DNA of 64,000 nt from a virus. Lineage: Duplodnaviria; Caudoviricetes. The notes beneath the pieces were generated by a model. That model saw only the letters and a program-made list of their open reading frames with translations, made no database searches and had not been told where the DNA came from. Made by a program: the position numbers and the translations under genes. This document shows, in pieces, positions 3,872-63,112 of the stretch; position 1 is the first letter of the stretch, and the number at the start of each line of letters is the position of its first letter. The stretch covers positions 64,001-128,000 of IMG/VR virus record IMGVR_UViG_3300033498_000048; one strand, given 5' to 3'.

Positions 3872-4385
3872 TTCAATGAGTTAGCACTTATAGGTGTTGG
3901 GTAATTAGTAACCTGTTCCAAATGCTAACCTATTGATATTGTTAGTGTATATTATTATCAATTAAATCAATAAGTTAGCACTTATAGGTGTTGGGTAATT
4001 AGTAACCTGTTCCAAATGCTAACCTATTGATATTGTTAGTGTATATTATTATCAATTAAATCAATAAGTTAGCACTTACAGTTTGGTATTAGTTAGTTAA
4101 TGGTTGCAAGTGCTAACTCATTGATTTGTAGTAATTGACAATGATGACACATGGACACGATATATTGATAACCAAGAATCAATGAGTTAGCACTTGGAAC
4201 AGGTTACTAATTAACCAACACATACAAATGCTATGTCATTGATATTTAACACCTAACTAATTGGCTAACAGAATCAATGACATAGCATTTGCAGCTATTA
4301 TATAATTAACTAACACCTCTAAGTGCTAAGTCATTGATAGTTGGTGCTATTGATTGTTTAGTTGAAAATCAAAGGGTTAGCATTT
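3872..4385. repeat. 66-bp dyad element cluster A (5 complete units + 1 half site)
   Basis: Left arms end at 3889, 3983, 4077, 4195, 4290 (half site 4385); each complete unit has a 30-nt core with central TAATTA/TAGTTA followed by the inverse arm. Confidence 0.95.
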
Positions 4386-4706
4386 GGAGCATAAACCGAT
4401 TGCATTAATAATTTCGCCCCATGAAACAGCTCTGTTTATTCCCAAATCGTAACCATAATCTTCAGTTTCTTGATTATAGTCTGTAGATATAACGTAACGG
4501 GTTGAATCGTCATCGTGTAACATTCCAAGGTCAACTGTAACTGGAGTTAAACTACCATCATTATCAATGTAGTACGAATCGCAGTAAACTTCAAATGTTC
4601 CAAGTTTGGTGAAATTAAAAACCCTAGAAAATTTACAGTCTGCATAATAATTGGGTGCAAGTGGTATTTGATGCAATATTGTTGTTCCAACTTGTTTTGT
4701 TTTCAT
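4377..4706 (-). CDS. hypothetical protein between element clusters A and B
   Basis: 109-aa ORF with its own promoter; stop codon lies in a repeat arm. Confidence 0.65.
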   Translation of the reverse strand: MKTKQVGTTILHQIPLAPNYYADCKFSRVFNFTKLGTFEVYCDSYYIDNDGSLTPVTVDLGMLHDDDSTRYVISTDYNQETEDYGYDLGINRAVSWGEIINAIGLCSKC

Positions 4707-4737
4707 GTTAGAAACCCCTGTTAGTTAATGAAGACGC

Positions 4738-4767
4738 ATTATAATACAACCTACAGATTAACGTCAA
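4738..4767 (-). promoter_or_regulatory. sigma70-like early promoter
   Basis: TTGACG-N18-TATAAT. Confidence 0.6.
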
Positions 4768-4794
4768 TGCGTTAGGAATTTAATAATTCGTTCC

Positions 4795-5177
4795 GATTGC
4801 TAACCTATTGATTTAATTGAGAATTATATACTAATATTATCAATAGGTTAGCACTTGTAACCATCTTATAATTAACTAACTGCTGCAAGTGCTATCTTAT
4901 TGATAACTAAGCACAAACTTATGTGGCATAAGAATCAATGATGATATGTGGAACAATTTGTGTCCATCAAGTTAGCACTTCCCAGTTTGTGTTAATAATT
5001 GACATGAATACACTCAACCAACTATCAATGAGTTAGCACTTACAACTGGTTACTAATTACCTAACTGCTTAAAGTGCTAACGCATTGATTTGTATAGTGC
5101 ATATTTTTACATATAATTATCAACAAGATAGCACTTGGAACAGTGTTATTAATTACCTAATGGCTGCAAGTGCTAAC
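4795..5177. repeat. 66-bp dyad element cluster B (3 units + 2 half sites)
   Basis: Units 4839-4904, 5024-5089, 5119-5177 (31-nt core); half sites near 4795-4812 and 4965-4980. Confidence 0.93.
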
Positions 5178-5179
5178 GC

Positions 5180-5187
5180 TATAAATA
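5180..5187 (+). promoter_or_regulatory. T4-type late promoter
   Basis: TATAAATA 28 nt upstream of the structural gene ATG; the same octamer precedes the 12089 and 23165 genes. Confidence 0.7.
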
Positions 5188-5214
5188 TTATAAAAATTAA
5201 CAAGAGAAACTAAT

Positions 5215-7068
5215 ATGTCAGGATATAAAAGCCAAGTTCAATATGATGCACCAGTAAGTTTTTGGACGTTTGATGGTGATTTGTTTGATACTGGTGTTAG
5301 GGTTTTAATGCCAGCAAGTGGTGAACCGATGTATATAATGGATGAAATTGAAAATCAAAATCCAGCAATATTACAAGTTCAAAGTTTACAGGGACCACAT
5401 GGTTATCGTATGGGTATTTCTAGTTTAGTTCAACTTGAAACATCAGACCAAGCAGCGTGTTCATTTGGATTTTATGGAAGACAACCAACACATCCAGACG
5501 ATGGTTGGGCAAAAGCATATTTAACAATACCTCATAGTATTCAATATTCATTTCCAAATAATGGTTCATTCAGTATTGAGTTTATGTTCAATAAAACAAC
5601 TGAAAATGATTATGCAAATTGGTACTATGGAAAGTATAATAATTATTATCAAATACCAATATCACGTCCAATATTTTACAAAACAAATGTAATTGATATA
5701 CATTCGTTGTTTTATTATGGGAATTATTTAGTTATTAAGTTTCCAAGTAACGTAACAATTAATTTAGACATTAGTAAACATATTGGAAAGGATACTCACT
5801 TTGCTTTATCGTGGAACGTTATTGAAACTTCTTCTAATGTATATGAGGCAACCGAAACTGTTTATATTGAATCAAGAATTGTATATCAATTTAAACGAAC
5901 ATATTATGATGTTTACCCTAACACAAATGTGGCACAAGATTGGGAAATTGCTGGTATATCAAACAATTCAAGTCTATATCATTCAGATAGGAATACATCA
6001 TCACTAAAACTCGACCAAATAGCGATATATGATTATGCTTTAAGTGTTGATAATGTAGCAAATCATTATAAGAAGCTTAGGGAATATGATAAAATGATAG
6101 TTAATGATGGGGCTGAATATTTTTATCCAATGGATGAAGACGATAGCCTTACCGATTGGACTATAAGAGAACCATCGTATAAGAATCAACACAGTAATGT
6201 TGTTGCTAATTATATTGGTAATATATCAACACTATCAAGAGGGAACCCTGGACCAAGAACTATTCCATTAGCAGTAGCACCTACATTCACAAACGGAGCT
6301 AGTGCATTTATCAAAACCAATAATACTTATTCTCCAGTATTTCCAATCACAAATGAATATACAGTGGAGTTTTGGTTTAATTCAAGCCACGCACAACGTG
6401 GGATATTACTATCACAACAAGGTGAGGAATACCCATATTCAGGAATATTGGTAACATTGAATTGGAGAGACAATGCAATTAATAATGGTGCAATCCAATG
6501 GAATATTAACGATGAATATTACATTTGTTCATTAGAATATGATGAATTGTTTAATCCATATTACTTCAATGATGGTAATTGGCATCATATAGTGCTATTA
6601 AGAAGAAGTGGATTGTATATGGAATTATGGTTAGATGGAATATTACACAATTCAGTACAAATGCCTAATGTTTCAGTACAATCAACTGGAAGCATATATA
6701 TGATGGGAATAAAACCTGGACACTTTAGTATGAATGGACAAATATGTAAACTTGCCTATTATGGATTTGCATTACAACAACAACAAATTCAATGTAGGCA
6801 TTCATATTCGATAACATTTAAAATAAAGGGAATTGTTACATTGCGAGGTGTTCCAACAAAAGCAACTATTAGAGCATACGACCACGGAACTGGACACCTA
6901 ATACAAGAACAAGAAAGTGACATTAACAATGGTGAATATACAATTGTTTTGTCCAACAATAGAAAGATTGATTTGATGGTATTCGATAAGAATGATAGAA
7001 GTGTTCGGTATAGAGCTTATGGACCAATAACCCCAAGTGAATATGAAGACTTACCAATCTTAATATGA
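5215..7068 (+). CDS. virion protein with two LamG/concanavalin A-like domains and C-terminal Ig/carboxypeptidase-regulatory-like domain
   Basis: FSIEFMF, YTVEFWF, DGNWHHIVLLR, LWLDG, LDQIAIYDYALS motifs; late promoter. Confidence 0.75.
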   Translation: MSGYKSQVQYDAPVSFWTFDGDLFDTGVRVLMPASGEPMYIMDEIENQNPAILQVQSLQGPHGYRMGISSLVQLETSDQAACSFGFYGRQPTHPDDGWAKAYLTIPHSIQYSFPNNGSFSIEFMFNKTTENDYANWYYGKYNNYYQIPISRPIFYKTNVIDIHSLFYYGNYLVIKFPSNVTINLDISKHIGKDTHFALSWNVIETSSNVYEATETVYIESRIVYQFKRTYYDVYPNTNVAQDWEIAGISNNSSLYHSDRNTSSLKLDQIAIYDYALSVDNVANHYKKLREYDKMIVNDGAEYFYPMDEDDSLTDWTIREPSYKNQHSNVVANYIGNISTLSRGNPGPRTIPLAVAPTFTNGASAFIKTNNTYSPVFPITNEYTVEFWFNSSHAQRGILLSQQGEEYPYSGILVTLNWRDNAINNGAIQWNINDEYYICSLEYDELFNPYYFNDGNWHHIVLLRRSGLYMELWLDGILHNSVQMPNVSVQSTGSIYMMGIKPGHFSMNGQICKLAYYGFALQQQQIQCRHSYSITFKIKGIVTLRGVPTKATIRAYDHGTGHLIQEQESDINNGEYTIVLSNNRKIDLMVFDKNDRSVRYRAYGPITPSEYEDLPILI

Positions 7069-18264: not shown

Positions 18265-18267
18265 AAT

Positions 18268-22328: not shown

Positions 22329-23112
22329 GGAACAACTATTATAATTAACTAACACGTCCAAGTGCTAACTTATTGATTTAATTGAATTATGGTAAAATGC
22401 TTAATAAACAGTTAGTTAGCACTTAGACACATTAGGTAATTACTAACACGATGCAAGTGCTAACCCATTGATTGTTGGTATTCATGTCAATTATTAAGAA
22501 TCAATAAGTTAGCACTTGGACGTGTTAGTTAATTATAATACTGTCTAAGTGCTAACCCATTGATTTAACTGGCTTATGGTGAAAATGTTTAATAAACAAG
22601 TTAGTTAGCATTTAGAAGACCATCTGCAAGTGCTAACAGTCACTTAACAAGTAACTTTGTAAGATATTAACTCATCTACAAAAAATTCATCCAAGCCTCT
22701 TTGTGTAATGGTTCAGTAAGATATGTAAAGATACTATTAATTTCACTACTAACAAATTTAATACATTATCCATTTTATGCTCCACATTTACCATTAGTTG
22801 TAATTTATAAAAGTATAGTCATTTGACAGTCCGATGTCAACTATCAGTGTATATTCATGTCAATTATGAAGAATCAATGACTTAGCACTTGGAACGGTTA
22901 TATAACTAACTAACACCATCAAGTGCTAACTTATTGATTTGATTGAGTTATGATAAAGACTTAATAAGCAGTCAGTTAGCACTTAGAATCACTCAATAAG
23001 GTGCTAACGCTTAATAATTGACAACGAATAGATAACACAACCAACTATCAATGAGTTAGCACTTGCAACCATTATATAATTAATACACCCATGTAAGTGC
23101 TAACTTATTGAT
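22329..23112. repeat. 66-bp dyad element cluster C (5 units incl. one lacking left arm, plus 2 short-core variants)
   Basis: Cores 22329-22359, 22425-22454, 22518-22546, 22891-22920, 23065-23094; 14-nt-core variants 22614-22627 and 22985-22998. Confidence 0.93.
22812..22840 (-). promoter_or_regulatory. sigma70-like promoter inside cluster C
   Basis: TTGACA-N17-TATACT. Confidence 0.65.
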
Positions 23113-23121: not shown

Positions 23122-23129
23122 TATAAATA
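23122..23129 (+). promoter_or_regulatory. T4-type late promoter
   Basis: TATAAATA upstream of GGAG RBS and ATG 23165. Confidence 0.7.
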
Positions 23130-49649: not shown

Positions 49650-49768
49650 ACGATGTTATATTAATTGTTTTTGTTACAAGCTTTTCATTAACTATATGTG
49701 ATTCTGGACACTGATTGGTGTCTAAAACATTGACATTCCCAATCCATTAAAAGTATTTCAACATCTTA

Positions 49769-50518: not shown

Positions 50519-50522
50519 GATT

Positions 50523-51524
50523 TTAAAAATGTATTTTAGATAGTGGAGTTCCCTTGTTATATCTATTAGTTACTGGTTTAATATTACACAATTTAGTAAC
50601 ACATGGATATAATGTAATATCGTTTTCTATTAGATATGATTGTGTAATATCAATTGCGTCCAACATAAACTTACTTCTTGTTGTTATTAGCAATTGACTT
50701 CCAGAAGTATTAGCATATTGTAAATATTCAAATGCCAATTCAAATAGAAAGTCCGAATTAATGTTTGCTTCTGGTGTATCAATAACAATCATTGATTTGT
50801 TTTTTAAATCAAGGACTAGCATATTGAAAAATAGGTTTAATTCCCCAATTGACATATATTTTAAAATCCTATCAAAATGATAATCAATAGGATACATCAA
50901 CATATAATCAAACTTATCACTAAGCTGTGTGCATAATTGTTTAAAGTTTTTTTCTGTGATTAAACTAGAATCAAATTTTGATGTGTCTATGATTTGTATT
51001 CCAAGTAAAAATTGTCTAATAGACCCAATAGTATCTAATGAATCGTTAATATTAAACTTCAATGCCAAATCATCAAATGGATATGGATTGGTGTTAAACA
51101 CTGGAGCGTATGAATAGTTAATCATATCAAATTCATTTACAATAAACTCGATTCCACTAAATGAGTGATATAGAATATAATACGATTTTCCATTGATATT
51201 ACAACCAATAGATTCTTCACGAATAAATACTCCATTTTTAGTGTCAAACCCTATATCTAATTGATAAGATATTAAGTTATCAAATACCAAGTCAAATCTA
51301 ATGAATTGATTATTTCCAAACACATCTTCAATACCACCTCGTTTTGAAATTGCTGTTTTTAAATCTGTAACCAAACAGTCTTGGATAAACGCAATTGTAT
51401 CAATCAATCTCGTTTTGCCTGTTCCGTGTATTCCATACACAAAACTAAGATTATGTGGAATGTCCTTAAGTATCAGTTCACCTAATCCTTTATAGTTTTG
51501 AATTTTTATGTGTTTTAGTTTCAT
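50523..51524 (-). CDS. ABC/AAA_21-family ATPase, catalytically degenerate
   Basis: IKIQNYKG, GIHGTGKT (Walker A), MSIGE, IVIDTPE (Walker B E>T), ITTRS (H-loop H>R). Confidence 0.75.
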   Translation of the reverse strand: MKLKHIKIQNYKGLGELILKDIPHNLSFVYGIHGTGKTRLIDTIAFIQDCLVTDLKTAISKRGGIEDVFGNNQFIRFDLVFDNLISYQLDIGFDTKNGVFIREESIGCNINGKSYYILYHSFSGIEFIVNEFDMINYSYAPVFNTNPYPFDDLALKFNINDSLDTIGSIRQFLLGIQIIDTSKFDSSLITEKNFKQLCTQLSDKFDYMLMYPIDYHFDRILKYMSIGELNLFFNMLVLDLKNKSMIVIDTPEANINSDFLFELAFEYLQYANTSGSQLLITTRSKFMLDAIDITQSYLIENDITLYPCVTKLCNIKPVTNRYNKGTPLSKIHF

Positions 51525-51745
51525 TTTTTGGAACTGTCCAATTTATTTTTTTCATTCGTTAAATCGTTTCAATGATATACCTCATTAAAACCTTTACCCA
51601 TAAGAATAGCACTTTGCTGCAAATTTAATTGCAAAAGACAAAGCTTCTTCATTTTCTTTAAAAGCTTTGTAAAGAGGTGACTCTAATTTTTTTAACTTTA
51701 TTATCAATAGTTAGTCGATTAAGGACAATTGGTCTTTTTCGTTCT

Positions 51746-51928
51746 TCATAATATATCATTCCTATATTTATTTGTAAACTCAACCAAAGCTTCACTTGGA
51801 TTAAAATAATTCGTCACAAACTTTAAACTATCAACGGATGCTCTTCCATCTACAACACCTTGCCAATAAAAGGATTCCATATCTGATTTAGTGTATAGTC
51901 CAAAATACCTTAGTATTCTTTTCAGCAT
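51746..51928 (-). CDS. hypothetical protein
   Basis: ORF track. Confidence 0.45.
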   Translation of the reverse strand: MLKRILRYFGLYTKSDMESFYWQGVVDGRASVDSLKFVTNYFNPSEALVEFTNKYRNDIL

Positions 51929-52167
51929 TAATTTTTAATCCTAATTGATATAGTTGATATAGTACCAAAATAAGTGATTTCACATTCAGCGATAACCATT
52001 CCAGCTAACGTGTCTTTAATGTCATTAACAATAGCAGCTATATTAGCCTGTATGCAGTGAATTAACAATACTTCATTAATTGTACGGTCAAGTGAAACTG
52101 TTGTTCCAGGGTATTTAACAGTTAATTCCAACAACTTACTTTTTATTAACATTGATTCAATATTCAT
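51928..52167 (-). CDS. hypothetical protein
   Basis: ORF track. Confidence 0.5.
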   Translation of the reverse strand: MNIESMLIKSKLLELTVKYPGTTVSLDRTINEVLLIHCIQANIAAIVNDIKDTLAGMVIAECEITYFGTISTISIRIKN

Positions 52168-52563
52168 TTAAATATGGACTCCATTAACATGGTCAACTTC
52201 GTGTTGTGCTATAAATGATGCTAGTCCAGATAACTTATACATTACTGGTTCAAAGTCGGTATTAACTCCTTGTAATGTGACTCGATAGTGCCGTTGCTTT
52301 TTAACTGCTTTGTTTGGAAATGATAAACAACCTTCTTTGCTAGTCTTTTTTTCAAGACTCTTAGCTGTAATTACTGGATTAACTATCGTTACAAACTCAC
52401 CATTAATTTTAACGATAATGATACTTTTAGTTATTCCAATTTGAACTGCTGCAATTCCAACACCATTACCTATATTGTTCAATAATTCCAACTCAATTTG
52501 TTTAACATCGTCATATTCAGTCAACATTTCAGATGGAACGTTAATATAATCATTTGTAAACAT
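52168..52563 (-). CDS. def: peptide deformylase
   Basis: GVGIAAVQIG, EGCLSFP, QHEVDH motifs. Confidence 0.95.
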   Translation of the reverse strand: MFTNDYINVPSEMLTEYDDVKQIELELLNNIGNGVGIAAVQIGITKSIIIVKINGEFVTIVNPVITAKSLEKKTSKEGCLSFPNKAVKKQRHYRVTLQGVNTDFEPVMYKLSGLASFIAQHEVDHVNGVHI

Positions 52564-52592
52564 TTTAACTCCCCGTATTAGTTTATAGTCGT

Positions 52593-52621
52593 ATTATATA
52601 GGCTTAATGATTCAATGTCAA
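52593..52621 (-). promoter_or_regulatory. sigma70-like early promoter
   Basis: Perfect TTGACA-N17-TATAAT abutting element cluster D. Confidence 0.75.
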
Positions 52622-52883
52622 ACAACAAGTTAGCACTTGCAACAATTAGGTAATTAACACTGTCCAAGTGCTAACTCGTTGGTTTAATTGATGATAGTTG
52701 GCTCATAATTAAATCAATAGGTTAGCACTTACATGGGAGTGCTAATTATATAACCGTTCTAAGTGCTAACCTATTGATTTAATTGAGAATGATTGAGAAT
52801 GATTATAGCCTAACAATATCAATGAGTTAGCACTTACAGGTTAGTATTAGTTATATAACTGTTCCAAGTGCTAACCTATTGAT
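52621..52883. repeat. 66-bp dyad element cluster D (3 units)
   Basis: Cores 52639-52665 (27 nt), 52731-52760, 52836-52865; middle unit has perfect 20-bp arms. Confidence 0.95.
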
Positions 52884-52982
52884 GTATAATAATTGACAAG
52901 AATGATAGTAGTGGAACAGTTGTTTTTGTGTGTTAGTCTTCTATTTGTTCCATTTTTAGTTTATTCAACCCATTAGTTTATT

Positions 52983-53372
52983 TTAACTGGAAGTCAACTT
53001 GACAAAAACAGAATCATATTCTTCTTTAAACATCGCAATTTTGTTTTTGATTAGAGTTATATCGTATTCCAATGATGTTATGTGCCTTGCCCTTAACTCT
53101 AGGTAATATAGCTTACATTCTTTTTCATCTGTAAACAAATTTAACTCAGCTCCACTTGTATTACCAAATAACTTTATTTCTTTTTTCGTTACATCTCCCT
53201 TTGAATTGATTACACGAAAACGACCATTATCTCCAACTTGCACGTTTGTTGGAATAACATTTCGTTGTGGATTCTCATTTCCAGTATATGTAAAGTAATA
53301 TGCACATACCCACAAACTCATACCACAAAATTCTTTACCAGTATAAGCATATTCATTAAACTCTAATTTCAT
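52983..53372 (-). CDS. hypothetical protein
   Basis: ORF between clusters D and E. Confidence 0.6.
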   Translation of the reverse strand: MKLEFNEYAYTGKEFCGMSLWVCAYYFTYTGNENPQRNVIPTNVQVGDNGRFRVINSKGDVTKKEIKLFGNTSGAELNLFTDEKECKLYYLELRARHITSLEYDITLIKNKIAMFKEEYDSVFVKLTSS

Positions 53373-53776
53373 TTAATATTCCCTGTGTATCCTAGTAATC
53401 CAAAGTCTAGGATTGTACTTAATAACAAATCACATTCACTATTGGACAACTTAATATAATGTGTTTTAAACTTTCTTGCAATTGCAACAACTTCTTTGTA
53501 TCGGGTTATCATATTTCTTTCAAGTTTTTTAAATTCGATTATATCGGAATATAAACCTGGATTAGGTTTATTATCCTTGTGTACCATGCAATATTTCATT
53601 ATCAATTTATTAACTGAAAATTTGGTAATTTCCATAGCTTTAGTTATATGCTTTGAATTAACCAACTTTACATCTAAGCAATTAGTGTAATTAGTCGATA
53701 AGCGATGTTTTAACTGTTGATACAACTTTAACCTATCAGCTAATGGCATATCAAGTAATTCATATTTTTTGTTCAT
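53369..53776 (-). CDS. hypothetical protein
   Basis: ORF with GGAG RBS and promoter. Confidence 0.6.
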   Translation of the reverse strand: MNKKYELLDMPLADRLKLYQQLKHRLSTNYTNCLDVKLVNSKHITKAMEITKFSVNKLIMKYCMVHKDNKPNPGLYSDIIEFKKLERNMITRYKEVVAIARKFKTHYIKLSNSECDLLLSTILDFGLLGYTGNIK

Positions 53777-53804
53777 TATTTAACTCCAATGTTTTTGTTG
53801 GCGA

Positions 53805-53833
53805 ATTATATTCAGTATTCCAAACAATGTCAA
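53805..53833 (-). promoter_or_regulatory. sigma70-like early promoter
   Basis: Perfect TTGACA-N17-TATAAT. Confidence 0.75.
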
Positions 53834-53855
53834 CGCAATATCGTTCAAACTATAA

Positions 53856-54141
53856 ATCAATGACTTAGCACTTGGAACAGTTATATAATTAAGACCAATC
53901 TGCAAATGCTAACTTGTTGATTCTAATAACATTCATCTAAACTCAATTAAATCAACAAGTTAGCATTTGGAACGGTTATATAATTAAGACCACGCTGTAA
54001 GTGCTAAGTCATTGATTCTTTATAATTGACAATGATTGATAGTGTATAGAATACATATTAACAGGTAAATACAAAATCAATAACTTAGCACTTGGAACTA
54101 TTAGGTAATTATAAGACCTGTCTAAGTGCTAAGTCATTGAT
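53856..54141. repeat. 66-bp dyad element cluster E (3 units)
   Basis: Cores 53874-53903, 53969-53998, 54094-54123, all 12+TAATTA+12. Confidence 0.95.
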
Positions 54142-54155
54142 TTTTGAATAGTGAT

Positions 54156-54485
54156 TCATCTAATATTTTCGTACCAGAATTTAACTCTAGGAGGTTCATC
54201 GAAACACCAAACAGATATTATTTCAGGCATATAGCAATATTCAGACTCAGCTTTACGCATAGTTTTTCCAGACTTTCTTGCTGTGTCAATTATCAATATT
54301 GGACTCAATTCTTTTGGTATTTGTGTTCCATACGGAATAAATGGAACACCTAATAAATATGATGAATATACAGCAGCTATAGCACCACTACGACCTGGAC
54401 CAGTAACACTATTAACTTTCTTTATATTAGACAACTTAGCCTTTAAAACCGTTTGAAATTCAACCTCTGTCACAATTCTACTCAT
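54156..54485 (-). CDS. phosphoribosyltransferase-fold protein
   Basis: GPGRSGAI...LGVP; ILIIDTARKSGKTM (PRPP-loop like). Confidence 0.6.
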   Translation of the reverse strand: MSRIVTEVEFQTVLKAKLSNIKKVNSVTGPGRSGAIAAVYSSYLLGVPFIPYGTQIPKELSPILIIDTARKSGKTMRKAESEYCYMPEIISVWCFDEPPRVKFWYENIR

Positions 54486-54501
54486 ATTTTAGCTTATCCT
54501 T

Positions 54502-54646
54502 AAAATCAATAGGTTAGCACTTGCAACGGTTATATAATTACTAACACGATGCAAGTGCTAACCTATTGATTTTTGTGTGTTAATAATTGACAACGATAAT
54601 AGATGGAACATCCATCTTAACTGGTACATAATTATTAACACATTGG
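54502..54646. repeat. dyad element F (perfect 21-bp arms) plus armless core
   Basis: AAAATCAATAGGTTAGCACTT-N30-AAGTGCTAACCTATTGATTTT (54502-54573); core remnant AACTGGTACATAATTATTAACAC centred 94 bp downstream. Confidence 0.92.
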
Positions 54647-54654
54647 GTTATAGT

Positions 54655-54942
54655 TCATAAGATAATTTGGTATTTCTTTATTTCCTCTCGATAATATTTA
54701 CACATTATCATACCAACATTTGGGTAATGTTCACTTTCAATGATACTCGTATCTAATGCTTGTTGGCAAAATACTATTTCACGTTTAGCTAACTCCAAAG
54801 CATATTCTAAATTTATGTCAGCTAATTTTAGTATAAGTTCGTCCGTGTTTTTAATGTTCCCAAGCTCTGGGTCTACAACTTTAAATGAACATTGTCCATT
54901 AGATGCTTGTTGGAAGTGGAAGTTCCAATCATTTGCGTTCAT
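54655..54942 (-). CDS. hypothetical protein, paralog A (MNANDWN...)
   Basis: Start reassigned to 54942 by homology with 55202-55513 and promoter position. Confidence 0.7.
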   Translation of the reverse strand: MNANDWNFHFQQASNGQCSFKVVDPELGNIKNTDELILKLADINLEYALELAKREIVFCQQALDTSIIESEHYPNVGMIMCKYYREEIKKYQIIL

Positions 54943-54970
54943 ACATACCTCGGTGATAATTAAAAGTGGT

Positions 54971-54999
54971 AATATACATAATATTTCAGCTATTGTCAA
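54971..54999 (-). promoter_or_regulatory. sigma70-like promoter (duplicated at 55544-55572)
   Basis: TTGACA-N17-TATATT. Confidence 0.6.
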
Positions 55000-55006
55000 A
55001 TATACA

Positions 55007-55176
55007 AATCAATGAGTTAGCATTTGCAGTGTGTTAATAATTATATAACTTCTGTAAATGCTAACTCATTGATTGTTAGTAGTTGACAATGGTAGTTCCA
55101 TGTACATCCACTTTAACGGGTTACACATGGAACTATTAGGTAATTAATAACACTATGCAAGTGCTAACCTGTTGTT
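55007..55176. repeat. dyad element cluster G (1 full + 1 lacking left arm)
   Basis: 55007-55074 perfect 19-bp arms; core 55129-55158 + right arm. Confidence 0.92.
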
Positions 55177-55201
55177 TTGCTTATAATTGTATATTGACTG
55201 A

Positions 55202-55513
55202 TTATAGTCTAACTCGCACAATAAACACCCTTTTGAATTTTTGTATTTCACTAGAATAATATTCACACATTATTCTACTAATATATGGGAAGGGGTCTGT
55301 TTTCATTTCTTCCTCATAATAAGATAACCATTTTTCACAAAATACTATTTCACGTTTAGCTAACTCCAAAGCATATTTTAAATTTATTTCAGCCATCTTT
55401 AGTATAAGTTCATCTGTATTTTTAATATTACCGATTTCTGGTTGAATAACTTTAAATGTACATTGTCCATTAGATGCTTTTTGAAAATTATAGTTCCAAT
55501 CATTTGCGTTCAT
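55202..55513 (-). CDS. hypothetical protein, paralog B (MNANDWN...)
   Basis: 49/59 N-terminal residues identical to paralog A (hand count). Confidence 0.7.
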   Translation of the reverse strand: MNANDWNYNFQKASNGQCTFKVIQPEIGNIKNTDELILKMAEINLKYALELAKREIVFCEKWLSYYEEEMKTDPFPYISRIMCEYYSSEIQKFKRVFIVRVRL

Positions 55514-55543
55514 ATTATAAATCCGTTAGTGATTAAAAGTGAC

Positions 55544-55572
55544 AATATACATAATATTGCATCTATTGTCAA
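55544..55572 (-). promoter_or_regulatory. sigma70-like promoter
   Basis: TTGACA-N17-TATATT. Confidence 0.6.
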
Positions 55573-55581
55573 CTACTATAA

Positions 55582-55840
55582 ATCAATACCTTAGCACTTG
55601 TACTGGTCTTATAATTACCTAATACACCCAAGTGCCAACTTATTGATTCTTAACAATCGGATACATGGAACGTTCAAATGCTAACCTAATGGTTCTTAAT
55701 GTTTATGTTATACAAATCAACAGGTTGGCATTTACAACTGGTACATAATTATAAGACCAGTACAAGTGCTAAGGTGTTGATAACTGACAATGGTAGTTTC
55801 CATGTTCCATTCAAAATATAACTCAATAACTTAGCACATG
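55582..55840. repeat. dyad element cluster H (2 units + 2 half sites)
   Basis: Cores 55600-55629 and 55734-55763; half sites near 55676 and 55823-55839. Confidence 0.92.
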
Positions 55841-55910
55841 GAACAGATACACAATTAACTACATTATGCTGTTGATTTATGGTTGGACTGTAATTTAGCC
55901 ATTCCCAAAT

Positions 55911-55918
55911 ACTAAATA
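55911..55918 (+). promoter_or_regulatory. variant T4-type late promoter
   Basis: ACTAAATA 34 nt upstream of ATG 55952. Confidence 0.45.
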
Positions 55919-55951
55919 TCATATACTTTAATTAACGTGGAGATAACACAA

Positions 55952-56767
55952 ATGTTGACATTTAATGATTTTAAAAATTCAACTCAAAGTCAAGATATAA
56001 TTTATAACGAAAACTACTGTGATTACTTAGATGCAATATCATTAATAGAATCATATTATTCAAATCAATTATCTGAAAATATTATCACGGAATTGCCTGA
56101 TAAATTGAAAGATAAATTTGATTTCATTAAATCTATTGCTGATGTGGCAAAGATGGACATTTCAGAACTAATATCTATAATTAAGTTTCCTAGTGTATTT
56201 GAGTTTTTTGATTCGATTAAATTTAACTTAGCTAAGTTTTATAATATATTAAAACAAGGCTATAAATCGTATATTGAATTGGAACATGAAGTTTCTAAGT
56301 TTGCAGCTAATCAAAAAATAATGAAGTGGACCACTGCAAACTTAGAACTATTAGATGATTATTTGATGAATAACAAAGCACTCCACAGAATTACTGGAGT
56401 GGCAGCATCTGGAATCTTATTGTTTATGTGGATGCACCAATCACACACTGGTAACATAGACCACGACTTTAATGCTGATGATATTGTCAATGCTATGAAG
56501 GGGGAATATGAATTAGCAGATTTATTTGGAGGACATGAGGGTGCGAAACGATTGATGTTATTTGCTGTTGGTATCACCGTCCATGTTACATTCCCTTGGC
56601 CCACACCTAGCGATGTAAGCCTTATCATTGGACTAATACGAAATTTGAGAAAAACTATGAAGGTTAGAATCGAAAATGAAAAGGCTAACGAACCACCTAA
56701 ATTAATACCACGACCACATAAGGGAACTACCAGTAAAAAAAGAACTACCGAATCTTTTATGTGGTGA
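55952..56767 (+). CDS. putative late/virion or membrane protein
   Basis: GGAG RBS before MLTFNDFK start (track uses GTG 55937); two short hydrophobic segments. Confidence 0.6.
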   Translation: MLTFNDFKNSTQSQDIIYNENYCDYLDAISLIESYYSNQLSENIITELPDKLKDKFDFIKSIADVAKMDISELISIIKFPSVFEFFDSIKFNLAKFYNILKQGYKSYIELEHEVSKFAANQKIMKWTTANLELLDDYLMNNKALHRITGVAASGILLFMWMHQSHTGNIDHDFNADDIVNAMKGEYELADLFGGHEGAKRLMLFAVGITVHVTFPWPTPSDVSLIIGLIRNLRKTMKVRIENEKANEPPKLIPRPHKGTTSKKRTTESFMW

Positions 56768-56775
56768 TTCCAAAA

Positions 56776-56839
56776 ATCAATAAGTTAGCACTTGCTGGTT
56801 TGTATTAATTATAACACTGTCCAAGTGCTAACCTGTTGA
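56776..56839. repeat. single dyad element I between convergent genes
   Basis: ATCAATAAGTTAGCACTT-N29-AAGTGCTAACCTGTTGA. Confidence 0.9.
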
Positions 56840-56847
56840 ATTACTGA

Positions 56848-57201
56848 TTAGTTTAGTCCAGACGCATACAGTTCAGCAGCTTCTATAAATCCAAGCTCAA
56901 ATTGTATTAATTTTTTAGCCCACAATGGTGCATTCCATGCTGATAAGATGAAGTTTAATATAATGCTATCTATGTGTTTATGGGTAGGTTTTTCTCCAAA
57001 TTGTGTTGGTAAATAATAATCACCCATCATATCCATTGCTAACGCTTTACCAATTTCCTTACTGTACCTATCTTTTTTATTTGAAAAACTATAACCAAAT
57101 CTAATCACATATCTACCTTTTTTATTGGACGTTAATTCAGACGCTATTGTAATAACATTAGTGTGGATTAATCCAGTATTGCCGATGTATTTAAATCTCA
57201 T
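56848..57201 (-). CDS. conserved phage hypothetical protein
   Basis: GYSFSNKKDRYSKEIGKALA motif. Confidence 0.6.
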   Translation of the reverse strand: MRFKYIGNTGLIHTNVITIASELTSNKKGRYVIRFGYSFSNKKDRYSKEIGKALAMDMMGDYYLPTQFGEKPTHKHIDSIILNFILSAWNAPLWAKKLIQFELGFIEAAELYASGLN

Positions 57202-57288
57202 GCTGTTTACTCAATTATTAAAAACTATATTGTACACAAGGACAGTTCAATAAGATGTTGACTGTAGAACTGTCCTTAAACAACCAAT

Positions 57289-57648
57289 TTACGATTTCAC
57301 TCGAACATTCATACAAGTTATACTTCCAGACTCGGAAAATATATTTTTACCAACATCACCTTTAACCTCAACTGAACCTGTAACAGTTGCAACATCACCT
57401 CCAACCGAACCAGTAACGACAACATTACCTGATTGAGTTCTAATAGTTTCAAGTGTTGGACTTGTGACATTGATTGTAATTGATGTGTTAGGTTTAAAGG
57501 CAGTGTGGATTTTACCATCAACTAAAACCTCATTATCTGTTACAAACACACGATTACCGTTAGTGACATTTACAATAGTGCTATTGTCTCCAAAATTAAT
57601 ACTTCCACCTGTTACATTACCTATAAAAGTTTGTTTCCGTTCTGACAT
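57289..57648 (-). CDS. beta-helix/DUF4097-like small protein
   Basis: SGNVVVTGSVGGDVATVTGSVEVKGDVG repeats. Confidence 0.6.
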   Translation of the reverse strand: MSERKQTFIGNVTGGSINFGDNSTIVNVTNGNRVFVTDNEVLVDGKIHTAFKPNTSITINVTSPTLETIRTQSGNVVVTGSVGGDVATVTGSVEVKGDVGKNIFSESGSITCMNVRVKS

Positions 57649-57677
57649 ATATTACCTACATTAAATTAATTAAATTA

Positions 57678-57729
57678 ATAAGTTAGCACTTGAACGATTT
57701 GATAAAAATAATCTGTCACAAGTGCTAAT
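57678..57729. repeat. degenerate dyad element J
   Basis: ATAAGTTAGCACTT-N28-AAGTGCTAAT; core diverged. Confidence 0.75.
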
Positions 57730-57732
57730 AAA

Positions 57733-59016
57733 TCACCTCTTAGCATCATATTCTGGATTAATGAACTTACATGATAAGTTATTTGTTTCCATCGTTCTAA
57801 CCACAATTCCTTCGATTATTTCACCATTTTTCTTGTGTTCATCAAACATCAACTGGACAGTATTACACAAGTCTTCATAACTATGTGGGGTAATTACCGT
57901 TGTTGGAACAACTGGTAGATTTAAGTCTTTAGCAACATTCCACAAATCGTAACCATTCAAACGAATAGCATTGGGACCAGATACATCATCCAAACCAAAC
58001 AATATCAATCCTTGTTCTTTTTTAGAATGTGGATTGTGTTTGTTTCCAGAACCTTTCAATCCCTTACCATAAATCTCAGCTCTAAATGCCAATTCCAAAT
58101 CATTATCTAAACAGTATTGATACCCCTTATCTAATAACCCAGATGATTTTGAAATATCAACCCATGAGTCCTTATAAGCTATTTCAATTGGAGTTAAATC
58201 ACTAACATTATCATTGGTTCTAAAATCTCCAGTTTCTTCGCACAACCATCCCCTAGTATTGTCAGCAAAATGCTTTCTATAGGGTTTAAACTCATTATCA
58301 ACATAATGGGAAACAACTGTGGGGTTTAATTTTTTCAAAAACATTCTGGAACACACAAAAGGCTTCAATTCACCGTTGATTTTTTTGAATGCAACTGTTA
58401 AAGATGAACCATCCACTTTCAAAGACAACCCCAATGGCTCTCCACGCTCAATAACCATTTTTATGTGATTGACGATGTTTTGATACATAATTTCATCTGT
58501 TTTGTACATCCAATATGGAAAATCACCTTGAATTAATCCATTAGATTGTGTTGAAGGTTCAGGCTCTTCATACTTCACAATTTCCAAGGCTTCAGTCAAG
58601 TTACAATCACCAATATTAATTCCCTTATTAATTAAATATGATTCAACTAATTGGAAAGATAATAAGATTCCAAAAGACCAAATCGGTTGAATATCATCCT
58701 CAAATGAAAATGTAAATTTAGACGATTTAATCCTATTGTTCGTTCCTAATCTAGTTCGTTTTGGTTCACCACCTGGAGCTATAAATTCACTAAATAACTC
58801 TGTGTTAGGAACACAATAATCTGGTTGAATGAAAATTGCCTTATCTCCAATTTCATATAATCCGATTTGTGCAATTAGATTAAATCCACAAGTTTCACCT
58901 GTTCGGTCAAATGTGAATCTAACAACTTCAATGTTAGTAGCTGCTTCGCCGTTTTTTTGAATTTTTAAATTTTGATTAATTGTAACCAGTTCTACTGGAT
59001 TAACTTCATTTGTCAT
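57733..59016 (-). CDS. RNA ligase (Rnl2/DRB0094-like) with N-terminal OB-like domain
   Basis: FIQPD, SLKVDGSS (motif I), RAEIYGKG, IEGIVVR, KFINPEY. Confidence 0.85.
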   Translation of the reverse strand: MTNEVNPVELVTINQNLKIQKNGEAATNIEVVRFTFDRTGETCGFNLIAQIGLYEIGDKAIFIQPDYCVPNTELFSEFIAPGGEPKRTRLGTNNRIKSSKFTFSFEDDIQPIWSFGILLSFQLVESYLINKGINIGDCNLTEALEIVKYEEPEPSTQSNGLIQGDFPYWMYKTDEIMYQNIVNHIKMVIERGEPLGLSLKVDGSSLTVAFKKINGELKPFVCSRMFLKKLNPTVVSHYVDNEFKPYRKHFADNTRGWLCEETGDFRTNDNVSDLTPIEIAYKDSWVDISKSSGLLDKGYQYCLDNDLELAFRAEIYGKGLKGSGNKHNPHSKKEQGLILFGLDDVSGPNAIRLNGYDLWNVAKDLNLPVVPTTVITPHSYEDLCNTVQLMFDEHKKNGEIIEGIVVRTMETNNLSCKFINPEYDAKR

Positions 59017-59019
59017 ATT

Positions 59020-59349
59020 TTATTCCTTAATGTGGTTTTGATACCAATCTTTATATTTTGTATATTGTGCTGTTGCATCTGAAAAATTGTAAATGTTACC
59101 TCCAATTTTAATATACTCAGCAAACTGGTAAATATTCATTTTTTCAACTGTTGGAAAAAATAATACTACTAATTTATTATCACGAATAAATACTCCAGAA
59201 ATATAATCTTTATTCACATTCAACAAGTCTTGTAATATACTTTCTTTTGAATCATATCTTCCAGTTCCTACATATGTCGTGAAATATTCATAACTACAGG
59301 GGGTTAGCATTGTGATTGTTCCTTTTAAATTTAGTGTTTTTATGTCCAA
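59020..59349 (-). CDS. hypothetical protein
   Basis: ORF track. Confidence 0.55.
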   Translation of the reverse strand: MDIKTLNLKGTITMLTPCSYEYFTTYVGTGRYDSKESILQDLLNVNKDYISGVFIRDNKLVVLFFPTVEKMNIYQFAEYIKIGGNIYNFSDATAQYTKYKDWYQNHIKE

Positions 59350-59639
59350 CTAATCTCAAATGAGTTAATATCAAGCTCTTGTCCATAGGTTGGGGTATAT
59401 GATATTTTAAAATTTGAGCATATTAAAAATCTAGCGATATGCGTTTGCTGTTCACTAGAAATTTGAGCATCGAAGCGTAATGTCATACAAATTTCACCAC
59501 GCGAAGCACTTTCCGTAAATAACAATATAAGATATTCGATATATTTTTTGCTCTCATCTGTTAATAAGTTTAATAAAGCTTCCATTGATATTTTTTTAAT
59601 ATCGTTGGCATTTAATGTACTAAATTGTTGTACTACCAT
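59340..59639 (-). CDS. hypothetical protein
   Basis: ORF track. Confidence 0.55.
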   Translation of the reverse strand: MVVQQFSTLNANDIKKISMEALLNLLTDESKKYIEYLILLFTESASRGEICMTLRFDAQISSEQQTHIARFLICSNFKISYTPTYGQELDINSFEISWT

Positions 59640-59869
59640 ATTATTTTATTCCTTAATTTATATTGGGTAGAATTTAACGCATTAATAAACCCACCATCTT
59701 TAAATTTGAGTTTAGTGTTTATAAACCTTTCCAAGTCTTTTTTTGTCCAGTATTTACAATACACAAACCAGCCTAAATTGATTTTTTGATAAATGATTTT
59801 GTTAGTTTGGTCGACTTTATATTCTCCACTATCATTAATCTCGTTAATTAATTCTTTAATGTTACTCAT
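59633..59869 (-). CDS. hypothetical protein
   Basis: ORF track. Confidence 0.5.
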   Translation of the reverse strand: MSNIKELINEINDSGEYKVDQTNKIIYQKINLGWFVYCKYWTKKDLERFINTKLKFKDGGFINALNSTQYKLRNKIIW

Positions 59870-60185
59870 TGTTTTTCATCCAATAGTTTAACAAATCATC
59901 ACATACAACCCAAACTTCATCTCCATACATATTCACAATGAAAGACTCAACAGTATCACCATCTTCTTTCAAACCTAACTTAATGAGATTGTTGTGGAGC
60001 TTTACCACACAATATTCACCAAGACCCATAGCCTTTAGTAAACCATGTTGTTTACTTCTTTCAAATGCTTCTTGTAATTCCCTAGGTAGTGTATAAAGTG
60101 GACCCAATACAGACTCGCACTTATTAATAACGGTTTTGTTTGTTGGTTTAAACTCAACTCCAACTAACTCAGTTTGTTCTGTCAT
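59862..60185 (-). CDS. hypothetical protein
   Basis: ORF track. Confidence 0.55.
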   Translation of the reverse strand: MTEQTELVGVEFKPTNKTVINKCESVLGPLYTLPRELQEAFERSKQHGLLKAMGLGEYCVVKLHNNLIKLGLKEDGDTVESFIVNMYGDEVWVVCDDLLNYWMKNNE

Positions 60186-60304
60186 ATCTTAATTCCCCCT
60201 AACTACTCTTTGGATACCACACTTGGAACATCGTTCATAGTGGAAATTATCGGTGTATGGTCCATCGTACACCCATGAGTGTAATCCAATTCTACACATA
60301 ATCC

Positions 60305-60616
60305 TTACTCCGATATTGAAGCTGATAAGTTCCCAAAAACATCTTGGTCTATTACCAACCAAAACGATTCATCATCATCGTGACAAAAACGTATATACCA
60401 TGCACTTGTTCCATCTGCATCATTCTCATAGCCAACATAGTTCCAATGTGAATGCTCTATGCCGTTGATTGCAGATGTTATCGACTCTATTAAGAACTTC
60501 TTATCATCGACATAATCACCTTTATTAAAAGTCACTTCTGCATTTACATCATATGATAATGCTACGTTCAATATACTATCAATGATTTCGGTTATATTAT
60601 ACATTATTGTACCCAC
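60305..60616 (-). CDS. acidic hypothetical protein
   Basis: ORF track. Confidence 0.55.
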   Translation of the reverse strand: MGTIMYNITEIIDSILNVALSYDVNAEVTFNKGDYVDDKKFLIESITSAINGIEHSHWNYVGYENDADGTSAWYIRFCHDDDESFWLVIDQDVFGNLSASISE

Positions 60617-60885
60617 ACATATTCAATTGCACTATGAACCATATAAACACATGGTTTACCATCATATTTACTGGAATAAAACCTAACATGATAATCGTTT
60701 TTTACTGTTGGACAAGTACCAAACTCAACTAAGTCTGATGTGTCGATATGACGAATAAATGTATTATATTTGATTTCCCGACCACGTCCTGTCATTTCAG
60801 TGATTAATCTACCTGAAAGATTGACACAACTTCCAATAAGACTTTTTTTCATTTTTAATGCCTTGTGGTTAAAATAAAAACACAT
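60604..60885 (-). CDS. conserved phage hypothetical protein
   Basis: DYHVRFYSSKYDGKPCVYMVHSAIEYVW motif. Confidence 0.65.
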   Translation of the reverse strand: MCFYFNHKALKMKKSLIGSCVNLSGRLITEMTGRGREIKYNTFIRHIDTSDLVEFGTCPTVKNDYHVRFYSSKYDGKPCVYMVHSAIEYVWVQ

Positions 60886-60963
60886 AATAATCCTATTCTA
60901 ATCCAATGTCAATTTATTTTTGTAACAATGGAGTCTATGTGTCTAGTGGGATTTCAGACAACT

Positions 60964-61809
60964 TTATCCAACAAATGTTGTTTTAGCATTGACTTGTTTT
61001 TTATCTGTTATTGTTACAATAACATCATCGGTGATAGTAAATTTAACTTCAGAATATGAAATGTATTTTCCAGTGTCCATCATAATATGGGAACATTTAT
61101 CAGTATGTCCTATTAGATGAGTTCCATCCCAAGTATATGGATTACCATGTAAATCATTAAATGTACCAATATTTGGTTCTAATGTTTTAAGGTATGCTTT
61201 TTTACCAACTACATTCAAGTTATTGTACATATCAGAAAAACCTTTGTTTTCCACCATTTGAGTGAATAGTGTTGGGAATTTATGACTAATTTGTAATATT
61301 AAAATTGGCAATAACTCTGAGTATTCCCGATACGACCACGGGCTTGAAAAGTCTGATTGGGTTAAGGTACAAATAAGGAGTAGATTAATTGATGTGAAAT
61401 CATTAACACCAATCATATTAGATTTAAAACAAGTCGGGATTTTAGAACCAACTTCGTCAAGGTTTAGTTTTCTGTTATATGGGAAATAAACATAATCTCC
61501 AATTCGATACAATTGAGTATCAGCTTTAGTTAAAGCGTTTAATACTGGTTTGTACATATCGGACATTTTGTTTATCCATGTATAGAAACCTTTTGCTTTT
61601 GATGTAAATCCTAGTTCTGTGTTTGTTTGTCCGTATGGACATACTGAATCATTTAATTGAATACATTGCCCTAACGCATAAACCTCGCAGTTTGAACAAT
61701 TTGAACACTTTGCTATATAACACGTTGATTTTGCTGTTTTTGATACTCCAAACGACATTTTCATTAAGTTTTTTGTTGGATTATCAACATATGCGTGTAT
61801 TAATTTCAT
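60964..61809 (-). CDS. hypothetical protein with Cys cluster
   Basis: CSNCSNCEVY..GQC...CPYG. Confidence 0.65.
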   Translation of the reverse strand: MKLIHAYVDNPTKNLMKMSFGVSKTAKSTCYIAKCSNCSNCEVYALGQCIQLNDSVCPYGQTNTELGFTSKAKGFYTWINKMSDMYKPVLNALTKADTQLYRIGDYVYFPYNRKLNLDEVGSKIPTCFKSNMIGVNDFTSINLLLICTLTQSDFSSPWSYREYSELLPILILQISHKFPTLFTQMVENKGFSDMYNNLNVVGKKAYLKTLEPNIGTFNDLHGNPYTWDGTHLIGHTDKCSHIMMDTGKYISYSEVKFTITDDVIVTITDKKQVNAKTTFVG

Positions 61810-61891
61810 TTTTAAGTATTTCCTACTGGCTATTTAAGTTCTACAACTTCGTGTTTATTTCCACAGTGTGGACACCATAAGTGCGATGGTA

Positions 61892-62161
61892 TCAATTTAG
61901 GGTCGCCAATTGAAAACCATAACTTACAATCATCACACACAAAATGATATAGTGGTTCAAATGAATACCTTGGGTTGTATTGTTTTCGTTGTTCCACACT
62001 TTACGCTCGCGCTCTCTAAAAGTGTTGCAAATACTATCTGCTTTTGAATAATGAACTAATAGGGCTTTACCCAATTTATAAGATATAACATTAACAAAGC
62101 CAGTTTCTGGTGTTTTTGAATCTGGTAATATGTGAGCTGCATTTTCAAGATTATCTATCAT
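61892..62161 (-). CDS. hypothetical protein
   Basis: ORF track. Confidence 0.45.
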   Translation of the reverse strand: MIDNLENAAHILPDSKTPETGFVNVISYKLGKALLVHYSKADSICNTFRERERKVWNNENNTTQGIHLNHYIILCVMIVSYGFQLATLN

Positions 62162-62164
62162 ATT

Positions 62165-62434
62165 TTAATTCCCTTGTATCCGAGATGCTTTGTGTGCAAT
62201 ATCAACAGAAACCACTAATGCCATATATGCTGAATCACTTTTATTATTCAAATAACTTCTCAATGAATCAGATACATGGTTATCAATTAAAGCAAACATT
62301 TCAGCTTGTTCTAATAACAACAACCGTTTGTGATTAACTTTTTTTAAATGCTCTTTCACATCAGCATTAACACTAAGAGTTTCGATAAAAACGTCTGGAA
62401 TAACAATTCCTTCATACTTGTTGTGTGTTGTCAT
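62165..62434 (-). CDS. hypothetical protein
   Basis: ORF track. Confidence 0.55.
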   Translation of the reverse strand: MTTHNKYEGIVIPDVFIETLSVNADVKEHLKKVNHKRLLLLEQAEMFALIDNHVSDSLRSYLNNKSDSAYMALVVSVDIAHKASRIQGN

Positions 62435-62505
62435 ATTAGCCTACTTTGATGTGATTATTTAATATTTGCAATTATACTCAATTGATTATTTAAGTCAACA
62501 CTTGA

Positions 62506-62862
62506 TTAGATGAAGATTTGTAATGACATGGGAGTTGAAGTATCTCGTTTAGATGATATAAATGCGAGAGCTTCACCCTTTGAATAAAACTCAATACCTT
62601 CTCCAGACTTACAACCAACATATGACACTCCCCACTCAGGACAGCCAGATTTCACCCACCCTATCCTAGGGACAACACTCCACATTTTAGTTGGAATTGT
62701 AGCGTGAATGTCTCCATTCTTGAGAATGAAGTGTGTAACCCCTTTGATTGATACGAAGCCTAGAACACTCCAAGCTAAGTCTTGGAACTCAACTGCTGAT
62801 ATGGTTGGAAGCTGATTAAATATCTTAAGAGTCAGTTTAATTGTTTTGATAGTTACTTGCAT
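62506..62862 (-). CDS. hypothetical protein
   Basis: ORF with GGAG RBS and promoter. Confidence 0.6.
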   Translation of the reverse strand: MQVTIKTIKLTLKIFNQLPTISAVEFQDLAWSVLGFVSIKGVTHFILKNGDIHATIPTKMWSVVPRIGWVKSGCPEWGVSYVGCKSGEGIEFYSKGEALAFISSKRDTSTPMSLQIFI

Positions 62863-62895
62863 AGTATGTTATTACTCCATTCTGATAATTTGAGT

Positions 62896-62924
62896 ATCAT
62901 ACACACTAATAGTATTGGAGTCAA
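62896..62924 (-). promoter_or_regulatory. sigma70-like early promoter
   Basis: TTGACT-N17-TATGAT. Confidence 0.6.
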
Positions 62925-62953
62925 TATTTATCTTTCACTGTCAATTATGAAGA

Positions 62954-63112
62954 ATCAATGAGTTAGCACTTGCATCGTGTTAGTAATTATATAACCGTTC
63001 CAAGTGCTATCTTATTGATTTAATTGAGTATAAATGTATTAGTAATATCAATGAGTTAGCATTTATAACGGTTATATAATTACTAACACGATGCAAGTGC
63101 TAACTCATTGAT
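62954..63112. repeat. dyad element cluster K (2 units in inverted orientation)
   Basis: Cores 62972-63001 and 63065-63094; 46-bp perfect inverted repeat 62954-62999/63067-63112. Confidence 0.95.

Follow-up and report, generated by a model that had tools for sequence, protein, structure and literature searches.

The 64,000-nucleotide stretch of viral DNA analysed here (the window) comprises bases 64001-128000 of the complete 305,782-bp record IMGVR_UViG_3300033498_000048, which has direct terminal repeats and a GC content of 31%. It carries a dispersed family of symmetric 66-bp elements in which two inverted 18-bp arms enclose a core of mostly 30 bp. We find these units to be a real, strongly selected and lineage-specific family of putative protein-recognition modules, and the feature under selection is the pair of DNA half-sites, not hairpin pairing. 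The genome is that of a deep-branching T4-like myovirus, a jumbo phage. It encodes T4-type DNA polymerase, topoisomerase II large subunit, gp6-like baseplate wedge, tail sheath, gp46-like nuclease and primase-helicase, and its DNA polymerase shares only ~36% identity with the polymerases of T4-like phages in culture. Among public sequencing runs, a single microbial-mat metagenome contains the window in full, and no RNA run contains it.

To count the elements, we searched for the 18-nt arm ATCAATRRGTTAGCACTT with up to three mismatches and defined a unit as a plus-strand arm paired with the next minus-strand arm; shuffled sequence supplied the chance expectation for arm counts. The window holds 58 arms compared to 0.30 expected (shuffle maximum 3), which make up 24 intact units and about ten partial ones. 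A first-pass annotation of the window had proposed such a dispersed symmetric family, and the excess of arms bears it out: all 11 loci it named were recovered, together with one orphan arm. Its extent has to be revised, as a scan of the whole genome yields 215 arms in 41 clusters. Genome-wide there are 92 paired units, with a core of 30 nt in 84, of 29 nt in 3 and of other lengths in 5, in keeping with the core of mostly exactly 30 nt around a central TAATTA that had been described. Equally, the units had been called essentially all intergenic, and 207 of the 215 arms do lie outside called open reading frames (ORFs), although the intergenic share of the genome is 13%.

The oriented consensus reads A-ATCAATRRGTTAGCACTT-GGAACnGTTAtaTAATTAatAaCacnnTGy-AAGTGCTAACYYATTGAT-T. 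Core positions 13-18 are TAATTA in 80-83 of 84 units, with C at position 16 in 19. The core is asymmetric, and among the 84 units 40 show plus and 44 minus polarity. The first-pass annotation had correctly noted polar units in both polarities but traced them to non-complementary 12-mers; instead, units are polar because the centre of an inner dyad, GTTA-N9-TAAC, falls on a base, half a base pair away from the dyad of the arms. In 65 of 84 units this places RTTA at positions 7-10 of one half-core and at 8-11 of the other. The arm consensus itself is not self-complementary and does not contain GTAG. Within arrays the arms alternate between plus and minus, the step from unit to unit is 93-96 bp in 28 of 41 cases, and the spacers between units (27-30 nt) fall into a few recurring types. 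Arrays at different loci align in register across 300-500 bp at an identity of only 66-73%.

Within the arm, positions 1-5 and 10-18 hardly vary, positions 6-9 are free, and positions 6-9 and 16 were counted as the variable set. At variable positions the left and right arms of a unit agree no more than by chance (0.45 vs 0.46, 0.55 vs 0.54, 0.72 vs 0.66 and 0.74 vs 0.76). Each stem contains ~2.3 mismatches. On the sense strand of the 64 units located between co-directional genes, G·U mismatches are about as frequent as A·C (56 vs 48, p=0.49), next to 45 transversions. Cruciform or hairpin formation, previously suggested as one possible selected feature, is therefore not supported, as covariation is absent. 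Positions that are invariant in 84 of 84 units stand beside positions of near-zero information (core 6, 26 and 27), while the core length is still fixed. This pattern, together with the arrays that stay in register, indicates that purifying selection has long acted in every copy on a binding site defined by both sequence and geometry. Since the half-sites are conserved independently, the 30-bp distance is strict and conservation is position-specific, a site for a dimeric or multimeric protein, as initially proposed, would be the best fit.

The closest homologue of an RNA ligase gene adjoining one of the units (69% identity) is found on a 5.5-kb metagenome contig, L181 (ENA ERZ28612979), whose proteins are 64-74% identical to those of the phage. 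L181 carries at least seven paired units (eight left 9-mers) of the form CAAT-TTAGCACTT-N29/30-AAGTGCTAA-ATTG; their cores are AT-rich around a central AATTA(T), and the array period is 77-78 bp. Compared to the phage, the 9-mers are identical to the letter and their spacing is kept, whereas the sequences of outer arm and core and the array period differ. In this one relative, the half-sites, the 29-30 nt spacing and the AATTA centre thus prove conserved, but the outer arm sequence does not. Both genomes have a unit at the corresponding position immediately downstream of this ligase gene, but the two cores are unrelated. The neighbouring genes in L181 are homologues of phage genes at 122, 38.7, 118.7 and 36-37.6 kb, all of them flanked by elements in the phage, and units occupy four L181 junctions. 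Gene order therefore differs between the two genomes at the units, which bears, for one relative, on the earlier proposal that copy positions be compared to synteny breakpoints.

L181 is the only relative with the element among those searched. No units were found in the more distant relatives L182, L193, L195 and L194 (in tRNA cluster), and the matches obtained from IMG/VR, from JGI metagenome contigs and from GTDB genomes were all single ones, either unrelated or no more than expected by chance. A described family matching the units was found neither in Rfam nor in INPHARED or IMG/VR, in agreement with the initial view that no described family has this anatomy. Reads and contigs aligned to window positions 50000-64000 showed assembly breaks at the repeats and one 53-nt match of ~90% from another freshwater metagenome. 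A different, single-copy hairpin starting with the same 9-mer (16-bp stem TTAGCACTTCAAAGTT, 17-nt loop) occurs in L184, L185, L187 and L189-L192, which are IMG/VR contigs of 33-37% GC; it represents one locus in several unrelated viral contigs and is not arrayed.

Units in the phage usually follow a stop codon, in numbers of one to four, and precede an early promoter and a small gene. Sigma70-type early promoters (TTGACA-N17-TATAAT) are abundant, with 112 promoter-like sites in the genome. After 35 arms, TTGAC or TTGAT is found at +8 to +10, but a -10 box at a distance of 17±1 accompanies only ~5 of them, and the orientation of the 35 boxes is random relative to the genes. Approximately 11 genes begin 10-45 nt past an arm; their ribosome-binding sites are good and there is no space for a promoter, so that these units must be transcribed through. 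Genes embedded in arrays are ORFans, and Pfam and PHROGs searches detected no DNA-binding domain in their proteins. The polarity of the core is unrelated to gene direction or to the side of the TTGACA box; of the units with a gene starting 10-45 nt downstream, 6 are oriented toward that gene and 5 in the opposite direction. Random polarity could result from recombination between flanking inverted arms, as this would flip cores and spacers.

T4-type late promoters (TATAAATA) are in use in the phage as well, 22 of 23 intergenic copies being located at most 60 nt from a co-directional start. Three promoter-based readings of the units were rejected. For a promoter inside the core (TATAAT, core positions 11-16), a co-directional start is found at a distance of up to 60 nt for only 5 of the 47 intergenic copies of TATAATTA, compared to the 22/23 of the late promoter, and core polarity is independent of gene direction. 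A MotA-type middle promoter was discarded as the phage has no MotA or AsiA gene, and a role of the arms as general upstream element of early promoters because most promoters have no arms.

We consider the chances about even that the units are protein-bound boundary or operator modules which double as recombination joints and are analogous to the repeats of other T4-like phages and of enterobacteria described below. Each unit would be a double-stranded DNA recognition module for a sequence-specific, two-fold symmetric protein or complex. Its essential part would be the inverted pair TTAGCACTT / AAGTGCTAA, 30 bp apart (39 bp centre to centre), flanking an AT-rich, AATTA-centred core that is probably bent. 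The modules border small early-gene cassettes in hyperplastic regions of the T4-like jumbo phage, being placed past stop codons, beside sigma70-type early promoters or 15-40 nt before start codons, and would most likely act as operators or boundary elements of early transcription units. As ~100 near-identical copies exist in both orientations, the units may also be recombination joints, at which homologous recombination would invert, duplicate and reshuffle the cassettes.

Several observations speak against this proposal. Most of the 112 sigma70-like early promoter sites (about 100) lack a neighbouring unit, and units occupy tandem, convergent and divergent intergenic regions alike, so that no single simple regulatory logic emerges. 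The evidence for shuffling comes from the single 5.5-kb contig, and paralogous genes adjoining units are only weakly enriched (odds ratio 1.9, p=0.06). A search of the genome revealed no gene for HU/IHF, HrcA, MotA or AsiA. Moreover, transcribed units would fold as hairpins (-17 to -22 kcal/mol, z -3 to -8), for which reason a side effect at the RNA level is possible. Of note, small paralogue pairs with at least one member adjoining a unit are found at genome positions 68377-68706 / 51462-51980, 118655-118999 / 119202-119513 and 119937-120767 / 184897-185601; the pair at 118.7/119.2 kb lies within a local duplication of 80% identity across 315 bp.

The anatomy of the unit is new, and its invariant half-site equals that of a heat-shock operator. 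The inner 9-mers TTAGCACTT / AAGTGCTAA match the half-site consensus of CIRCE (the inverted repeat that controls chaperone expression; PMC3806222, PMC1676014) at 8 of 9 positions and in the same inverted sense. They are identical at 9 of 9 positions to the half-site of TTAGCACTT-N9-AAGTGCTAA, a functional CIRCE variant in Mycoplasma feriruminatoris (PMC12597100). Five of the 101 Campylobacterota genomes searched carry the same variant, and at the two loci examined the genes downstream of it are clpB and hsp20. Like the phage unit, CIRCE (TTAGCACTC-N9-GAGTGCTAA) consists of inverted 9-mers and is often located in leaders a few tens of nucleotides before the start codon. In contrast, the phage spacer is 30 instead of 9, the phage has ~100 copies compared to one to five, and the flanking genes are phage ORFans and not chaperone genes.

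Host HrcA is for these reasons the most concrete candidate binder. According to such a scheme the units would be re-spaced CIRCE operators, which either titrate this heat-shock repressor, de-repressing host chaperones for phage assembly, or place the early cassettes under its control. We regard it as unlikely. Nothing but the 9-mers and their spacing is retained in L181, the difference between 30 and 9 is 21 bp or two helical turns, and a host factor would serve, given that the phage has no HrcA of its own. However, the element lacks the defining spacing of CIRCE: the 9-mers are 30 apart in 81 pairs, and no pair with N9 spacing exists in the whole phage genome. On straight DNA, 39 bp is too far for a dimer made for N9 spacing to bridge, and no chaperone genes stand beside the units. 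The exact T/A variant is present in only one cyanobacterial genome among 301, and in none of 301 Bacillota genomes. In addition, an operator resemblance noticed after the fact is not very improbable, as the outer arm ends can likewise be read as FNR-type TTGAT/ATCAA half-sites. The corresponding evolutionary scenario, in which the phage lineage re-spaced half-sites of the near-universal CIRCE from N9 to N30 and multiplied them ~100-fold to capture host HrcA, as a decoy inducing chaperones for capsid assembly or to wire its cassettes to the protein-folding state of the host, is equally unlikely. If the CIRCE link were true, a lytic phage would be usurping a host stress regulator at the level of DNA, and the 9-mer may hint at a host from a low-GC lineage using the T/A CIRCE variant.

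An action at the RNA level was considered as well. The inverted arms would then form a hairpin that terminates, attenuates or stabilises early mRNA, with an adjacent sigma70 promoter restarting transcription, as in the promoter early stem-loops (PeSLs) described for T4-like phages (PMC4122927), to which this genome is related. The folding energies given above, flanks that are A-rich on the 5' and T-rich on the 3' side, and the fixed +8 to +10 position of the TTGAC/TTGAT boxes would all be compatible with this. Yet neither covariation nor a G·U preference is seen, and stems with 2.3 mismatches would enclose a 30-nt loop that is atypical for a terminator, in a genome with canonical GC-rich terminators elsewhere. 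Read-through is needed for the eleven genes that start shortly past a unit with no promoter of their own, and only ~5 of the 35 boxes, randomly oriented relative to genes, are followed by a properly placed -10. Finally, a function in pairing only would leave 9-mers that are letter-perfect across phages unexplained. We thus consider an RNA element of this type improbable.

Still less credit is due to the idea that the units are architectural sites for host integration host factor (IHF), with each arm as an IHF box and arrays folding early-region DNA into sharply bent complexes with protein so as to insulate or activate promoters. The outer arm with its 5' A equals the IHF consensus WATCAANNNNTTR, perfectly so in 164 of 215 arms. 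The four least conserved arm positions coincide with the four N positions of the consensus, and outside the arms WATCAANNNNTTR occurs at shuffle level (57 matches vs 54.6 ± 7.4 expected). There is also a precedent in the IHF sites of BIME-1 linkers (PMC3333891). Nevertheless, L181 maintains the element without an IHF consensus in its arms, where CAAT directly precedes the 9-mer and nothing is conserved further out; the IHF box is therefore not essential to the family. IHF would leave the invariant GCACTT and the 30-bp spacing unexplained, two footprints of ~35 bp would collide where spacers measure 28-30 bp, IHF bound in the +9 register would hide the -35 hexamer, and an HU/IHF gene is missing from the phage.

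A selfish mobile element, similar to a MITE (a miniature transposable element with inverted repeats) or an attC-like cassette site and spread by a transposase or recombinase, would account for the uniform 18-bp terminal inverted repeats, for the many intergenic copies in both orientations around small ORFan cassettes and for an arm layout of box, unpaired spacer and box that recalls attC, but is highly improbable in view of the missing target-site duplication (direct-repeat flanks are at chance level for k = 2-8), the regular 93-96 bp arrays with conserved linker types, a strict length and position-specific conservation beside saturated positions that argue for selection in place, and a polarity that is not fixed relative to cassettes. 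The whole genome contains no RAYT (Y1 transposase, PF01797), TnpB, tyrosine (PF00589) or serine recombinase, integrase or resolvase gene, and the dedicated recombinase envisaged by the first-pass annotation thus finds no counterpart. The same features set the units apart from described systems, as MITEs share the inverted repeats but carry target-site duplications, and integron attC sites come with a cognate tyrosine recombinase and a fixed cassette polarity, compared to 6 toward and 5 away and no PF00589 gene in the phage.

Reading the units as protein-bound modules and recombination joints, their closest analogues are the PeSL and PmSL cassettes of T4-like phages (Arbiol 2010; Comeau 2014, PMC4122927), an analogy already drawn in the first-pass annotation and apt with regard to the ORFan-rich early regions and to the gene order that differs from L181 at units. 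Both are dispersed, conserved intergenic motifs of hyperplastic, ORFan-rich early regions and are associated with gene-order differences between relatives (here one relative). PeSLs directly precede a complete sigma70-like early promoter, a Shine-Dalgarno sequence and a start codon; units, too, often lie shortly before TTGAC or TTGAT boxes, of which ~5 of 35 have a -10 at 17±1. However, a PeSL is a short terminator-like stem-loop with a complete promoter, whereas the phage unit spans 66 bp as a dyad whose core is fixed at 30 bp and whose half-sites are conserved to the letter. The units further differ from PeSLs by forming phased arrays, by showing no selection for pairing and by apparently lacking a functional promoter in most copies.

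The REP/BIME repeats of enterobacteria (PMC3333891) share the alternating orientation, the few linker types and the tandem intergenic arrays. BIMEs bind proteins, namely IHF at BIME-1 (RIB/RIP) and gyrase at BIME-2, and have a boundary or insulator role (PMC3333891). REPs, in contrast, are imperfect palindromes of 20-40 nt with a 5' GTAG that are linked to RAYTs, whereas the phage arms are non-palindromic and the phage has no RAYT; the IHF site of BIMEs lies in the linker, whereas the IHF-like box of the units lies in the arm and in a phage genome. The Correia elements of Neisseria are likewise short and dispersed; their inverted-repeat ends resemble promoters, they contain an IHF site, and transcripts next to them are affected. 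These are, however, MITEs of 100-155 bp with a TA duplication, which the phage units do not have. The present family would extend the idea of regulatory repeats serving as recombination joints, as known from PeSLs and BIMEs, to a more elaborate, protein-specific module in a deep-branching jumbo phage, and may offer a way into the question of how ORFan cassettes in the hyperplastic regions of phages are mobilised and regulated.

Table 1 Arms, units and adjoining predicted promoters in the window (window coordinates; units and arms are named by their first base).
Feature	Position	Strand	Remarks
Orphan arm	879..896	+	Outside the range given by the first-pass annotation
Array of 5 intact 66-bp units (3872, 3966, 4060, 4178, 4273) and half arm 4368	3872..4385		Period 94-95 bp
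Sigma70-type early promoter TTGACA-N18-TATAAT	3834..3864	-	Begins 8 nt past outermost arm; predicted driver of gene 2922-3863 (-)
Units 4839 and 5024; half arm 4795; unit 5119 with late promoter in place of outer right arm	4795..5171		
T4-type late promoter TATAAATA	5180..5187	+	Abuts truncated arm; 27 nt upstream of Laminin_G_3 gene 5215-7068
Units 22407, 22500 (29-nt core), 22873 and 23047; partial arms 22360 and 22967	22360..23112		
Late promoter TATAAATA	23122..23129	+	10 nt past last arm; upstream of Laminin_G_3 gene 23165-24733
Units 52621 (27-nt core), 52713 and 52818	52621..52883		
Early promoter of gene 52168-52563	52621-52593	-	Overlaps outermost arm of the 52621..52883 cluster
Units 53856, 53951 and 54076	53856..54141		Between stop of gene 54156-54485 and early promoter 53833-53805 (-)
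Single unit	54505..54570		19 nt upstream of start of ORFan 54156-54485; a separate promoter would not fit
Unit 55008 and half arm 55159	55008..55176		Early promoter 54999-54971 (-) begins 8 nt past arm
Units 55582 and 55716; degenerate arms 55676 and 55822	55582..55839		Early promoter 55572-55544 (-) begins 9 nt past arm
Single unit, 29-nt core	56776..56840		
Atypical unit, 9-mers 28 nt apart, no TAATTA	57674..57728		4 nt downstream of stop of RNA ligase gene 57733-59016
Two units, 62954 and 63047	62954..63112		

Two of the arrays end right at late promoters before Laminin_G_3 genes. The genome encodes five paralogues with this concanavalin-like domain, probably fibre or adhesin genes, at window positions 5215-7068, 23165-24733 and 24730-28386 and at genome positions 49458-51329 and 289309-291477, and arm clusters are located within a few hundred bases of all five loci. 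A peptide deformylase gene (window 52168-52563; PF01327, E = 5e-28) lies directly downstream of an element cluster and its early promoter. Inside the largest array, a small gene at genome positions 39390-39704 contains a cREC_REC (cyclic-phosphate processing receiver) domain (E = 7e-19).

Besides the RNA ligase gene next to the atypical unit (window 57733-59016; PF09414-like), which is the second of its kind, the RNA-repair genes of the window comprise an RnlA-like RNA ligase (37213-38304) and a Thg1-like tRNA-His guanylyltransferase (40080-40775), with an exonuclease and a nuclease close by (34632-37008). A DNA methyltransferase gene is found at window positions 18268-18987 (phrog_56, E = 2.5e-37). 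Near the right end and the direct terminal repeat, a segment of at least 100 bp is present in two identical copies, 159 bp apart, at genome positions 305548 and 305707.

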